From IMG/VR virus record IMGVR_UViG_3300027749_000091: a DNA stretch of 20,000 nucleotides. One strand, given 5' to 3'. A program made the position numbers and the translations under genes. Positions 16,186-20,000 of the stretch are shown in pieces. The stretch comes from an uncultured virus (IMG/VR IMGVR_UViG_3300027749_000091). Taxonomy: Duplodnaviria; Heunggongvirae; Uroviricota; Caudoviricetes. The notes under the pieces are model-generated. The model was not told the origin of the DNA, made no database searches, and saw only the letters and a program-made list of their open reading frames with translations. The stretch's first letter is position 1. The number at the start of each line of letters is the position of its first letter.

Positions 16186-16521
16186 ATGAACATCACAACA
16201 AGCGAGCCAATTTTAGGAATGACCCCAGATTATAAATGGGTCATTGTCATGCCTGATGGTAAGAACTATAAAAAGTCATTCAGTCCAGCGTATGACTTGA
16301 AGTTTCTTGATTTTGAACAGGCTAAATATTTTCTATCCAATATGGAATCAAAAAAGAAACATAAGGTAAAAATTAGCCTTGAGATTGAATTAGAGGTTTC
16401 AACAGATTATTTTGAGAAGTTATGCGATCAACTCTCTTTGGAGGTTGTTCGTAATTGTTTTAAAAATCACAATCGCACCATTAATTCAGAATCAATGACC
16501 ATTATCAAGGAGGAAGTATGA
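16186..16521 (+). CDS. Early-region hypothetical protein
   Basis: 111 aa; GGAG RBS; ATGA overlap downstream. Confidence 0.75.
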   Translation: MNITTSEPILGMTPDYKWVIVMPDGKNYKKSFSPAYDLKFLDFEQAKYFLSNMESKKKHKVKISLEIELEVSTDYFEKLCDQLSLEVVRNCFKNHNRTINSESMTIIKEEV

Positions 16522-16817
16522 CTTATAAAAACGAATTTTCGGATTTTGCTTACGATTTGCCCAATTTGGGCGATGGCTGGGAGGATAACTCTTGGCATAA
16601 CGATTCTTGTCCATCCTTAGACTATCCGCTAGGCGATGGCAAGATGTTGCGCATTTGGTTTCAAGAATCTAACCCTGAAGAGCGGGAATGCGGGGGCAAG
16701 CAGTTTGTTTTAGTAATTGGTGAATATGGCGATTCTGATCATCTTATGGAATCGGACGATTTAGACGAAGTTTTAGCTTATATCAAGGATCACAATTTAA
16801 CTAAGGAAAAATCATGA
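16518..16817 (+). CDS. Acidic early-region protein
   Basis: 99 aa; AGGAGG RBS; WEDNSWHNDSCPS motif. Confidence 0.8.
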   Translation: MTYKNEFSDFAYDLPNLGDGWEDNSWHNDSCPSLDYPLGDGKMLRIWFQESNPEERECGGKQFVLVIGEYGDSDHLMESDDLDEVLAYIKDHNLTKEKS

Positions 16818-17278
16818 CTACATATGCAATTTTTAGCAGTAAACATGACTCTGAAATATGGGTCAATCTTAAGGTCGGAACGCTCGAAAGCATGGAGACA
16901 GTTCGGGAATTAGTTATAGAAGAGATGAACAACGATCCAAGCCTTGAGCGTGGATATGTTGAATCCTATCCATTCTTTCAAGCTGATTGGGTAGTAATGG
17001 GCGGAAGAATAGAGACTCCCTTTGATTTCAATCAGATTTTAGAAGTAGAAAACGATCATGGTACTTTTGAAGAATCAAAACAATTTGAATGCTTTTGGGG
17101 TGATGGTTATCGGGCTGACGATAACAAATCTATTCTCGCTTATTACGATCAGGACTTTTTCAATCAAGATCGGGGATATGGGGAAATGGAATGCCACATG
17201 ATTTCCACTTTAGAAAAAGGCGATAGTTTAGATATTAGCGATGTAAGTGGTCATCATTGGGTAAGGCGGATTAAATGA
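16814..17278 (+). CDS. Acidic early-region protein
   Basis: 154 aa; ATGA overlaps on both sides; Asp/Glu-rich. Confidence 0.8.
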   Translation: MTTYAIFSSKHDSEIWVNLKVGTLESMETVRELVIEEMNNDPSLERGYVESYPFFQADWVVMGGRIETPFDFNQILEVENDHGTFEESKQFECFWGDGYRADDNKSILAYYDQDFFNQDRGYGEMECHMISTLEKGDSLDISDVSGHHWVRRIK

Positions 17279-17487
17279 AAATCTATTACGCACACGCACA
17301 GAGTCGGAATTTTGATTTCCAAGCCTTTGGATTGACTTATAACGAGGCGATTAAGACTCTTCATAAAGGGCTTAAGAAACACGCTAAACAATACAACCTA
17401 GAGCCGAAATGGTTCGAGGAATGGGCGGATATAAGGGTGGAAGAACTAGAGGGGGGCATAGCTTATCGAGATCGCTCGCCACTATAA
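17275..17487 (+). CDS. Early-region hypothetical protein
   Basis: 70 aa; ATGA overlap; stop abuts the hammerhead. Confidence 0.8.
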   Translation: MKIYYAHAQSRNFDFQAFGLTYNEAIKTLHKGLKKHAKQYNLEPKWFEEWADIRVEELEGGIAYRDRSPL

Positions 17488-17537
17488 GCAAGTCTGATGA
17501 GGCTTTATTAGCCGAAACCCCGAAAGGGGTCATTTGC
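17488..17537 (+). ncRNA. Type I hammerhead ribozyme
   Basis: Stem I GCAAGU/AUUUGC, core CUGAUGA (17494-17500), stem II GGCU-UUAUU-AGCC, GAAA (17514-17517), stem III CCCC-GAAA-GGGG, GUC cleavage triplet (17529-17531). Confidence 0.93.
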
Positions 17538-17560
17538 AAACAACCAAAAGAGGAAACAAA

Positions 17561-17851
17561 ATGGCACAGACTCAAATTTTCAGAGGCGTTGAAACGACCA
17601 CCTATTGCGACCAAGATGGGGCGCTTGTGGGTGTATATCGGGGGACTCCTGTAGTTCGCCAACTAGGGAACAAGATCACGCTTAAAACGGGCGGTTGGAA
17701 GTCTCGCACCACTAAATTAAGAATGAATCAGTTCTCTAGATCTTATTGTCAAAATCGGTTCGGGGTAACTCAAGAAAATTATGAATGGTTTTTAATTCTT
17801 AATGATCAAAAAATCCCGTTTGATGGCGATCAGATCTCTTTCGAGGTGTGA
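17561..17851 (+). CDS. Phage protein with GGWxxxTTKxRxN motif
   Basis: Start moved to ATG 17561 with GAGGA RBS; MAQTQIF...TGGWKSRTTKLRMNQ. Confidence 0.8.
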   Translation: MAQTQIFRGVETTTYCDQDGALVGVYRGTPVVRQLGNKITLKTGGWKSRTTKLRMNQFSRSYCQNRFGVTQENYEWFLILNDQKIPFDGDQISFEV

Positions 17852-17854
17852 TCT

Positions 17855-18019
17855 ATGAAGATTTATTACTATTGCGGAATCACTCGACAAGAGCGGGTTT
17901 TACACGCAAGCAAACATTTTGCAAAAGATCAGGCATTTTTTTGGGGCTACCTTGAGCGGTTAGGGGATAGCTTACATTTAATCGAACTAGATGAGGGGGA
18001 AACATGGGCTACACCATAG
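17855..18019 (+). CDS. Hypothetical protein (54 aa)
   Basis: Not in ORF track. MKIYYYCGITRQERVLHASKHFAKDQAFFWGYLERLGDSLHLIELDEGETWATP; GAGGTG RBS. Confidence 0.7.
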   Translation: MKIYYYCGITRQERVLHASKHFAKDQAFFWGYLERLGDSLHLIELDEGETWATP

Positions 18020-18162
18020 ACGATCTATTTATCTCTGTTAATGATATATACGAACAATACGACGAGGGCGAGATTCCGTTGGATGAGGCTAACGACATCT
18101 TAAAACGATGTTGCGAGTCCTTTATTCAAGCGCTAGAGGAAAAGGCTCGCTTGGCAGCATGA
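18004..18162 (+). CDS. Small acidic protein (52 aa) ending in LAA
   Basis: Not in ORF track. MGYTIDDLFISVNDIYEQYDEGEIPLDEANDILKRCCESFIQALEEKARLAA; GAGGGGG RBS. Confidence 0.7.
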   Translation: MGYTIDDLFISVNDIYEQYDEGEIPLDEANDILKRCCESFIQALEEKARLAA

Positions 18163-18165
18163 ATT

Positions 18166-18325
18166 AAATTTAGCCTGAAAAATCTCAGATTTGGGATTTT
18201 TTGGAGTAAGTTTTTTGTTTTTCCGTTTTCTAGTGCGTAGTAATACGCCAAAAAAGGCCAGAACCAGGCTTGAGGCGGTATTTTACTGGTTTCCGGATTG
18301 TAATTCGTAGCACAAGGCTAAATTT
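18166..18325. repeat. 11-bp inverted repeat enclosing several hairpins
   Basis: AAATTTAGCCT (18166-18176) and AGGCTAAATTT (18315-18325). Confidence 0.75.
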
Positions 18326-18339
18326 TAAAAGGAGGAGTC

Positions 18340-18716: not shown

Positions 18717-18876
18717 TGCCATGAAAGACGTTCAAGAATCAATTGATTACTTAACCGCAAAGAAAGAGGAGTACTCAGGGATTGCCCTGGCTATTGTAGA
18801 AAAACATTTAGGTTATGCTTTACTTAAAAAGGAGGAGTTATGCAAATCAACAGAGAATACTTTATCAACCAAATAG
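18682..18876 (+). CDS. Hypothetical helical protein
   Basis: 64 aa; GTG start after GGAGG; fills the gap between neighbours. Confidence 0.6.
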   Translation: MLNKRELSKKANAMKDVQESIDYLTAKKEEYSGIALAIVEKHLGYALLKKEELCKSTENTLSTK

Positions 18877-19079: not shown

Positions 19080-19152
19080 CGAACTTAAGTTGGAAGATGT
19101 AGTCTGCGTATTTTTATTTGGCCTTTTTGTTGTAGCGTGGTGCTTAGTATGA
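19072..19152 (+). CDS. 26-aa single-pass membrane peptide
   Basis: Not in ORF track. MNDELKLEDVVCVFLFGLFVVAWCLV; GGAG RBS; overlaps both neighbours. Confidence 0.6.
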   Translation: MNDELKLEDVVCVFLFGLFVVAWCLV

Positions 19153-19331
19153 GGCTATTACACGATAGAAACGAACTTATCCATACGGTTGAAAGATTGG
19201 AGGATAAGGGCGGTTTTGCGGTATCATTGGGTAAAGCTGCATTATTGGCTGACGATGACAACCTAAAGATACTTGTAAAAGCGTTCCCCGCTATATTCTC
19301 AACAAGCAATAGCATAAGGCTAATTAAATGA
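19149..19331 (+). CDS. Hypothetical protein
   Basis: Start placed at ATG 19149 (ATGA overlap); GGFAVSLGKAALLADDDNLKILVKAFP motif. Confidence 0.7.
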   Translation: MRLLHDRNELIHTVERLEDKGGFAVSLGKAALLADDDNLKILVKAFPAIFSTSNSIRLIK

Positions 19332-19516
19332 ATGCAGTCATTATCTATCTAAAAGACGGTAAAAACGGCAAAGTAGAGCTTTCTATGGAGCTAATCGGCG
19401 ATCCTGGTCAGTCTTTTTTGGTAGGTAATGCTGTAGTAAACAACCTTGTGGATTTAAATAGCGTTGTTTTCGCTAATAATGAGTTTACCCAGAGACCGCA
19501 TGACCGATTGCAATAA
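19328..19516 (+). CDS. Hypothetical protein
   Basis: 62 aa; ATGA overlap; last gene of the plus-strand array. Confidence 0.6.
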   Translation: MNAVIIYLKDGKNGKVELSMELIGDPGQSFLVGNAVVNNLVDLNSVVFANNEFTQRPHDRLQ

Positions 19517-20000
19517 GCGATAGGCCAGCGGTTTCTGCACCCACTCTTAACTCATAATCATTGAAATCCTCGCCCTCTACTGGCGATACCCAATAAGGCA
19601 TACCCGTTTTCTTAGCTACTTTGATCCCAATCGGATCATTGTCGGCTACGATTAAGCAATCAGGATAGTTCTTTGCTACCTCTAAGATGTTATTAGCCGA
19701 GAAACATACATGGATGGTATAGCGCTTTTTAACAGTCTTTAAAGCCTTTCTAATGGATAGAGCAGTAGCCAACCCCTCACAAAGAATGTGTCTTCCCTTG
19801 GCGTCAATCCTAAATTCAGCACCTTTAGTAATCTGTCCAGAAAGAAACCTTTTGCCACCCTCTTTGTCTATCATCTGACAACCTACCAATGACTGGTTTA
19901 TACGCATTGGAACAATCAGCATTTCTTTCCATACCGACAGTTTTTTATCTCCTGCAAAACCTTTGCTAGCTAAGTAAGGATGAGTTCCTTTTGTTGCGGA
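19485..20000 (-). CDS. TOPRIM-domain DNA primase-like protein; 5' end outside window
   Basis: Frame is open to base 20000 (SATKGTHPYLASKGF...); LIVPM, KRFLSG, ILCEGLATALSI, IVADND and DFND are TOPRIM motifs of P4/TraC-like primases. Confidence 0.88.
   Translation of the reverse strand, partial: SATKGTHPYLASKGFAGDKKLSVWKEMLIVPMRINQSLVGCQMIDKEGGKRFLSGQITKGAEFRIDAKGRHILCEGLATALSIRKALKTVKKRYTIHVCFSANNILEVAKNYPDCLIVADNDPIGIKVAKKTGMPYWVSPVEGEDFNDYELRVGAETAGLSLIAIGHAVSG

Follow-up and report, generated by a model that had tools for sequence, protein, structure and literature searches.

The early transcript of phage T7 is cut between its cistrons by RNase III, which leaves the upstream messages with 3´-terminal hairpins; this processing needs a host protein enzyme and gives 5´-phosphate and 3´-OH ends. 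In the synthetic insulator RiboJ, a hammerhead ribozyme placed before the ribosome-binding site gives the downstream message a uniform 5´ end, and the ribozyme body stays on the downstream RNA. Natural hammerheads have been reported by the hundreds from bacteria (Perreault et al. 2011, PMC3088659), and many of these lie close to genes for integrases, which often group with prophages. The same survey lists type I hammerheads in the Pseudomonas phages LUZ24 and PaP3 together with 860 environmental type I hits (Dataset S1), and it describes type II as very common in bacteria, with most type II copies able to form a pseudoknot as a tertiary contact. In the prophage clusters of Clostridium scindens, Azorhizobium caulinodans, and Agrobacterium tumefaciens, the hammerheads lie between small, variable genes and point in the same direction as these. 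Their suggested role is to divide long phage transcripts into mRNAs of gene length, and transcripts of ~2 kb were reported to be cleaved in vitro (PMC3088659). Three tandem arrangements cleaved in vitro, and the processing of long phage transcripts was proposed on that occasion in 2011 (PMC3088659). In the haloviruses HF1 and HF2, a hammerhead has its cut site 13 nt upstream of a start codon, and the 5´ end of a transcript maps no more than 3 nt away from this site (PMC3088659); this is the strongest in vivo hint so far published of a message 5´ end made by a ribozyme. In vivo cleavage has been seen by cyPhyRNA-seq for three type II hammerheads of bacteria that lie near phage-like genes (PMC8782182). 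For phage hammerheads, the literature likewise proposes that they process polycistronic messages (PMC3088659, PMC6765202), and a 2019 review describes the purpose of hammerheads in polycistronic transcripts as still undefined (PMC6765202). Our own literature searches found no paper on the LUZ24 hammerhead, nothing relevant on pelagiphage hammerheads, no new data in the recent literature on phage hammerhead function, and nothing directly usable on RiboJ, 5´-hydroxyl ends, and mRNA stability.

In this study, we analysed a hammerhead in the window, that is, the whole stretch of 20,000 nucleotides from the uncultured Caudoviricetes record IMGVR_UViG_3300027749_000091. Judging from its sequence, its fold, and its relatives, we consider it likely that the plus-strand segment 17488-17537 is an active type I hammerhead, which would sit in a polycistronic transcript of small, accessory, and probably early genes and uncouple the cistrons on its two sides. 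The earlier note had described a complete hammerhead with all core nucleotides, three intact stems, and a GAAA-capped stem III, and this description agrees with the sequence, the minimum free energy (MFE) fold, and a descriptor scan.

The 50-nt element reads, from 17488, GCAAGU, CUGAUGA, GGCU-UUAUU-AGCC, GAAA, CCCC-GAAA-GGGG, UC, and AUUUGC. Stem I joins 17488-17493 (GCAAGU) to 17532-17537 (AUUUGC) in six base pairs, one of which is G-U. The core heptamer CUGAUGA (17494-17500) is followed by stem II, GGCU/AGCC, in which 17501-17504 pairs with 17510-17513 around the loop UUAUU (17505-17509), by the GAAA core segment (17514-17517), and by stem III, CCCC/GGGG, in which 17518-17521 pairs with 17526-17529 beneath a GAAA cap (17522-17525). 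A17517 and U17530 form the A15.1-U16.1 pair that closes stem III, and C17 is C17531. All core positions of the hammerhead are present, namely C3, U4, G5, A6, N7, G8, and A9, then G12, A13, and A14, the A15.1-U16.1 pair, and a base other than G (H17) at the cut site, and so is the G10.1-C11.1 pair that opens stem II (G17501 with C17513). The assignment to type I follows from the topology, because stem I is open to the flanking RNA and stems II and III are closed by loops. In the canonical hammerhead layout, in which C17 comes after A15.1-U16.1, self-cleavage is predicted at 17531..17532, after C17531 and before A17532. Directly 5´ of stem I stands an unpaired A (17487), a position conserved in the family and here the last base of a stop codon, and directly 3´ of it stands an unpaired AA (17538-17539). 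When the 50-mer is folded in isolation, both the MFE structure and the centroid structure are exactly this three-way junction, with an energy of -16.3 kcal/mol and a z score of -2.26.

That an intergenic spacer resembles the hammerhead consensus by chance would be in keeping with the shortness of the minimal motif, and the bare heptamer CTGATGA is indeed unremarkable in the window, where it was found four times against 2.1 expected. However, a descriptor consisting of CUGANGA, stem II, GAAA, stem III, UH, and stem I, with stems of at least 3-4 bp, matches only 17488-17537 when both strands of the whole window are scanned, and it found no site in 1000 dinucleotide-preserving shuffles of the window. 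The other three CTGATGA sites are all on the minus strand, and the window holds no further hammerhead copy. In addition, we built a covariance model, R1, from an alignment (A2) of 31 hammerheads of other phage contigs, namely the copies with a 14-nt stem III region, with the window excluded. This independent model gives the window copy 62.3 bits (E 8.4e-15), and the next best match in the window reaches 9.5 bits. In A2, 99.8% of the cells are paired and 10 of the 16 pairs show changes on both sides, values that none of 500 shuffles reached and that are partly due to construction, as the parser required at least 5 of 6 pairs in stem I and at least 3 pairs in stem III, and stem II was fixed by the search pattern. 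Double changes occur in 10 of the 12 pairs of stems I and III among these 31 relatives, and pairing drops to 25-42% when the partners are slid by 1-3 columns. Together with the compensatory changes carried by the orthologous copies described below, the shuffles and the R1 score refute a chance resemblance as far as sequence analysis goes, and we regard it as extremely unlikely.

The absence of an Rfam call is the other point that a chance origin could draw upon. An Rfam search, proposed as a check in the earlier note, returned no family at gathering score anywhere in the window. In E-value mode, with 241 bases searched, the best match was Hammerhead_3 at 19.4 bits, against a cut-off of 48.5 and in a wrong, permuted register, and RAGATH-1-hammerhead (RF03152) matched in the right register at 14.9 bits against a cut-off of 56.3. 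Neither RF03152 nor any of the families of Rfam clan CL00010 (Hammerhead_1, Hammerhead_3, and others) reached its gathering threshold. The curated models of Rfam fail to recognise the small hammerhead form found in the window. Therefore, as the curated thresholds are not reached, we file the element by ribozyme class and topology, and under no single Rfam family.

The identity of the element as a hammerhead, which the earlier note had claimed, is further borne out by orthologous copies, by covariation in all three stems, and by a large family of copies in phages. A search of IMG/VR with the core and stem II fixed (CTGATGAGGCT N3-9 AGCCGAAAC) found matches in at least 121 viral stretches. Among the matches listed, 103 of 113 distinct copies possess, in addition, a stem I of 6 bp in which at least five of the pairs form, together with a stem III and the U-H cut site, none of which is demanded by the pattern, and the remaining 10 mostly have a bulged stem III or are cut by a contig end. 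A second IMG/VR pattern, in which stem II was left free (ACTGATGAG N11-13 CGAAAC), gave 138 distinct copies among the matches listed, 106 of which parse in the same way. Across these 138 listed copies stem II covaries: GGCU/AGCC (20/138) is followed by GACU/AGUC, GUCU/AGAC, GGAU/AUCC, and others, and loop II stays U-N-A-N-U among the matches listed. The 860 environmental type I hits of Dataset S1 (PMC3088659), as that resource is described, may already include this subclass. With the same pattern, one genome each of 185,579 prokaryotic species yielded only 22 matches, spread over many phyla, and the subclass is essentially a phage feature.

The periphery of these ribozymes is strikingly regular. 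In a set of 97 unique copies with a GGCU/AGCC stem II among the matches listed, the base before stem I is A in 92, the first base after stem I is A in 94, and the second is A in 77, while the distal pair of stem I is G-C in 83 of the 97 and the cut site is UC in 83 and UA in 14. Loop II has 5 nt in 85 of the 97 listed copies; within these 85, its position 1 is always U (85/85), its position 3 is A in 80, and its position 5 is U or G in 84. The window copy agrees with every one of these features, and it has the 6-bp stem I, the 4-bp stem II, the U-N-A-N-U loop, the abutting stop codon, and the leader class of ~25 nt that mark the subclass described by R1. Loop II, the exact length of stem I, and the flanking A's are thus conserved far beyond the needs of the minimal core, which argues for a tertiary contact between stem I and loop II and for useful rates in vivo. 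The earlier note had remarked that contacts of loop II with stem I were not obvious and that the rate in vivo was therefore uncertain. As to such contacts, a mutual-information scan identified no specific loop II-stem I contact, pseudoknot, or flank covariation, its signals being weak and confounded by relatedness. The strongest signal in the scan links position 5 of loop II with the distal base of stem I, possibly as a result of relatedness; this association may hint at a contact or may reflect shared ancestry. A G stands at loop II position 5 in six of the eight copies whose stem I begins with A.

Some contigs carry more than one copy. Two or three hammerheads within ~0.3-1.1 kb were observed in L169, L182, L199, and L208, and in L052, L070, L074, L075, and L106. 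On these multi-copy contigs each pair of hammerheads brackets a single small gene, and the lineage of the window has one copy per genome.

For a closer comparison, relatives were chosen by the 96-aa protein encoded downstream of the ribozyme, which gave 20 IMG/VR loci, two of them identical to the window. An R1 match is present in 11 of 19 related loci and absent, at E<=1, from the other 8. Nine loci (L003, L005-L009, and L011-L013) share the stem I of the window, GCAA[A/G]U/AUUUGC, and in the same nine the hammerhead stands behind an orthologue of the 70-aa gene that precedes it in the window. It follows this orthologue (71-76% identity) directly in L005, L007, L008, and L011, and in L003 and L012 one extra small ORF lies in between. 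In the orthologous copies U7 is changed to G or C, several have an extra U between A9 and G10.1, and in L012 the pair C15.2-G16.2 has become U-A and C17, at the cut site, has become A. Position 7 is the one core position of the hammerhead that accepts any base in mutagenesis, and an insertion between A9 and G10.1 has been described in some viroid hammerheads. The differences among orthologues are thus compensatory or lie at tolerated positions only. The natural core variants are those of L003, L007, L008, L011, and L012. L004, whose downstream protein is 73% identical, has a hammerhead at the same spot in which stems I and III are quite different and still pair (stem I GGCUAA/UUAGUC; stem III CUGUC-GAGA-GAUAG); this copy is among the 31 of A2.

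Each of five whole related records, one of them estimated to be 93% complete, contains a single R1 match (5/5). By contrast, none of the three nearest GenBank phages by terminase has an R1 match (0/3); these are DSL-LC04 (58.5% identity), 023Pt_psg01 (57.1%), and Pelagibacter phage HTVC027P (53.9%), in line with a window terminase that is 50-58% identical to those of aquatic phages, including DSL-LC04, 023Pt_psg01, and Pelagibacter phages. At the DNA level, the 1.4 kb around the site has no match in GenBank phages. The hammerhead is therefore dispensable, since 8 of 19 related loci and all three nearest terminase phages do without an R1 match.

The placement of the ribozyme between genes is as regular as its structure. 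As the earlier note had observed, it follows the upstream stop without any gap: the TAA of the 70-aa gene (17275-17487, plus strand) occupies 17485-17487, and stem I starts at 17488. The 29-nt leader given there also follows from our coordinates, because the predicted cut is after C17531 and the ATG is at 17561; this leader (17532-17560, plus strand) is A-rich, contains the Shine-Dalgarno sequence GAGGA at 17550-17554, and by prediction has next to no structure (-5 kcal/mol, z +1.29). Among the 97 listed copies, the stop codon of the longest upstream frame falls within -21 to +4 nt of the first base of stem I in 85, and in 16, as in the window, its last base directly precedes the first base of stem I. 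The stop is often inside the ribozyme, as the UGA of CUGAUGA or as a UAA or UGA within stem I or loop II. Between the cut and the next start codon, the leader measures 25 nt in the median (n=92, among the matches listed), and these leaders are A-rich.

The genes on the two sides of the element are co-oriented, and the word 'early' used for them in the earlier note is a guess from the small ORFs that diverge from the packaging module. The genes for the terminase subunits, the portal protein, and a head protein are on the minus strand below 15651, and from 15983 small ORFs without known function run in the opposite direction. From 16186 to 18162 the genes overlap or abut, and the sole gap is the 73 nt that hold the ribozyme and the leader; this region has no terminator-like site, and its promoter-like sites are weak consensus matches only. 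Co-transcription of the two flanking genes is therefore likely. The upstream 70-aa protein has no PHROG or Pfam family, and the downstream gene (17561-17851, plus strand) encodes a Kyano_Gp96-like protein of 96 aa (PF23790, phrog_554). Across the family, the idea of a fixed partner gene was rejected: 68 of 77 downstream proteins have no PHROG (E<=1e-5), and the other nine belong to families without known function, only one of which is common to two proteins. Among the matches listed, the downstream proteins of these 77 copies are small (42-175 aa) and unrelated.

From the motif, the fold, the conservation and covariation, and the fixed distances to stop and start, we infer that the element cleaves in vivo and influences the stability and translation of the two messages, and protein-free processing of a polycistronic message, which the earlier note had proposed, is on these grounds the explanation that fits best. 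The RNA would fold during transcription and cut itself after C17531. In a type I topology the upstream product would retain 44 of the 50 bases of the ribozyme, end in a 2´,3´-cyclic phosphate, and carry the hairpins of stems II and III as a structured 3´ end, an end that 3´ exonucleases and poly(A) polymerase would probably handle poorly. The downstream product would start with a 5´-OH at A17532 and six ribozyme bases, followed by the open A-rich leader with its own Shine-Dalgarno sequence, so that the downstream gene would gain a defined and accessible leader. Stem I, which is AU-rich and weak at 6 bp, should let the cleavage products separate. The two cistrons would thus be uncoupled, with separate ends, decay rates, and contexts for translation initiation, and without a host nuclease. 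Whether the 5´-OH would stabilise the downstream message, as the earlier note thought it could, or destabilise it depends on the RNases of the host: the 5´-OH product of the glmS ribozyme is a substrate of RNase J1 in Bacillus, and in E. coli 5´-OH ends are poor substrates for the 5´-monophosphate-stimulated RNase E pathway.

This processing presupposes that cleavage is fast enough at cellular Mg2+. If it were too slow, the folded RNA might be kept for its hairpins, as a 3´ stabiliser, a pause or decoupling structure, or a set of stops in several frames, a reading that would be in line with the overlap between the element and upstream stop codons in many family members, and with a stem I that is short (6 bp, AU-rich, one G-U) and for which no specific tertiary contact was identified. 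The fold in context points the same way. In a 173-nt segment stems II and III are retained and stem I gives way to other pairings, one of 17491-17496 with 17568-17573, inside the downstream ORF, and one of 17532-17536 with ~17556-17561, which covers the start-codon region, in a structure that makes up 0.8% of the ensemble (z -0.93). According to this model, the pairings that replace stem I could represent a competing, inactive conformer, over which co-transcriptional folding would give the ribozyme a head start. However, a slowly cutting element would leave unexplained why the unpaired catalytic core is near-invariant across hundreds of copies while the stems vary, and why the changes in the cores of orthologues are confined to tolerated positions. 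Moreover, loop II, the length of stem I, and the flanking A's are conserved as fast natural hammerheads require. We therefore consider it quite unlikely that the folded RNA is retained without effective cutting, and self-cleavage within the transcript remains our preferred reading.

Compared with the described systems, the locus shares its layout with LUZ24, where a hammerhead of the same class and topology (2413-2482) lies between the small genes gp5, which ends at 2409, and gp6, which starts at 2509, in the same succession of stop, ribozyme, short leader, and start. However, the stems of the LUZ24 ribozyme are different: stem I has 5 bp, stem-loop II is longer, and stem III is long. Its score on R1 is only 18.7 bits. 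The window also resembles the prophage clusters in that its ribozyme is intergenic and co-oriented with small genes, whereas, in contrast to those tandem arrangements, its lineage has a single copy per genome, as seen in the five related records. With the HHphage variant of HF1 and HF2 it shares a position shortly before a start codon, which in those viruses belongs to the gene that opens an early polycistronic transcript; that variant, however, belongs to an archaeal virus and has an atypical core with two inserted nucleotides (PMC3088659).

The likeness to T7 would lie in the cutting of a polycistronic early RNA between cistrons, with hairpins at the upstream 3´ ends. In contrast to RNase III processing, the element of the window would act without a protein and would give 5´-OH and 2´,3´-cyclic phosphate ends. 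It also differs from RiboJ in the distribution of its parts, as the type I layout leaves most of the ribozyme upstream and would provide the downstream message with a nearly scar-free leader.

The genes right behind the ribozyme are in a different order in the window and in its relatives. The window has the Kyano_Gp96-like gene first and the genes for proteins of 54 and 52 aa after it, whereas in the nine relatives with an orthologous hammerhead the ribozyme is followed by homologues of genes 17855-18019 and 18004-18162 of the window, and only then by the Gp96-like gene; the change is seen around 1480-2300 in L003, L005, L007, L008, L011, and L012, against 17561-18162 in the window. The leader of the window resembles the 3´ flank of the ribozyme fused to the Gp96 leader of the relatives (AACCAAAAGAGG). 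In two further relatives, L010 (~1885-1925) and L014 (~290-330), a promoter-like sequence recognised by eye, TTGCAA, 17 nt, and TATACA, and no hammerhead, precedes the Gp96-like gene. As this sequence takes the place of the hammerhead, it suggests that promoter and ribozyme may be alternative makers of the 5´ end of the Gp96-like gene.

Such rearrangement raises the question of whether the main role of the ribozyme is that of a portable junction for mobile gene cassettes, with cleavage as a side property or in the service of the cassettes. A near-identical core is common to unrelated phages, the A-rich leader would be a swap point for small accessory genes, the downstream genes of the 77 family copies have little in common, several contigs have three copies within ~1.1 kb, the class is rare in cellular genomes, and the gene order changes at exactly this place between the window and its nine relatives. 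Nevertheless, one rearrangement is an anecdote, and mosaicism is general in the accessory regions of phages, whether ribozymes are present or not. A role in gene exchange would also be compatible with a processing function and would probably depend on it. We therefore think it unlikely that cassette mobility is the chief role of the element and continue to favour the processing of the polycistronic message as its function.

A broader synthesis can also be put forward, although we hold it to be rather improbable in its entirety. In it, the subclass would be a dedicated 'cistron separator' that overlaps the upstream stop, gives the upstream message a protective 3´ end capped by a cyclic phosphate, and provides the downstream gene with a nearly scar-free, A-rich 5´-OH leader of fixed length as a substitute for a promoter. 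The same element would serve as an exchange junction for small accessory genes between phages, and a structurally undescribed tertiary contact would arise from the conserved loop II, a stem I of exactly 6 bp, and the flanking A's.

The hammerhead of the window, which comes from an uncultured aquatic phage, is one ordinary member of a very common class of phage ribozymes, and by itself it adds no new principle. What is added here are the regularities of the subclass, the series of orthologues, the change of gene order behind the ribozyme, and cultured phages that make the processing model testable. The 2019 review presents what the thousands of genomic hammerheads do as a question that is still open (PMC6765202), and the regularities of this family, namely the fixed distances to stop and start, the ribozyme body on the upstream product, the conserved periphery, and the strong enrichment in viral over cellular sequences, give a functional model that is testable. 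Two cultured phages allow such a test: LUZ24, which has the same gene layout, and Pelagibacter phage Jormungand EXVC012P, which has the same subclass. The Jormungand hammerhead (38217-38281; L148 601-665) is a true subclass member with 52.5 bits on R1; it is unannotated as an RNA and lies under the 3´ end of the annotated hypothetical gp49 CDS. It is followed by ~420 nt without an annotated gene and then by the gene of a MarR-family regulator, and this stretch of ~420 nt may hold an unannotated small gene or RNA.

Other non-coding gaps occur in the same gene run of the window, at 18163-18339, 18717-18839, and 19080-19327, and none of these three has a hammerhead-like R1 match. The first of them contains a terminator-like hairpin of 13 pairs at 18175-18204. 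At the end of the small-gene run, a gene on the minus strand (19485-19922) encodes a Toprim-domain protein (PF13362, E 1e-7) and overlaps the 3´ end of the plus-strand ORF 19328-19516.
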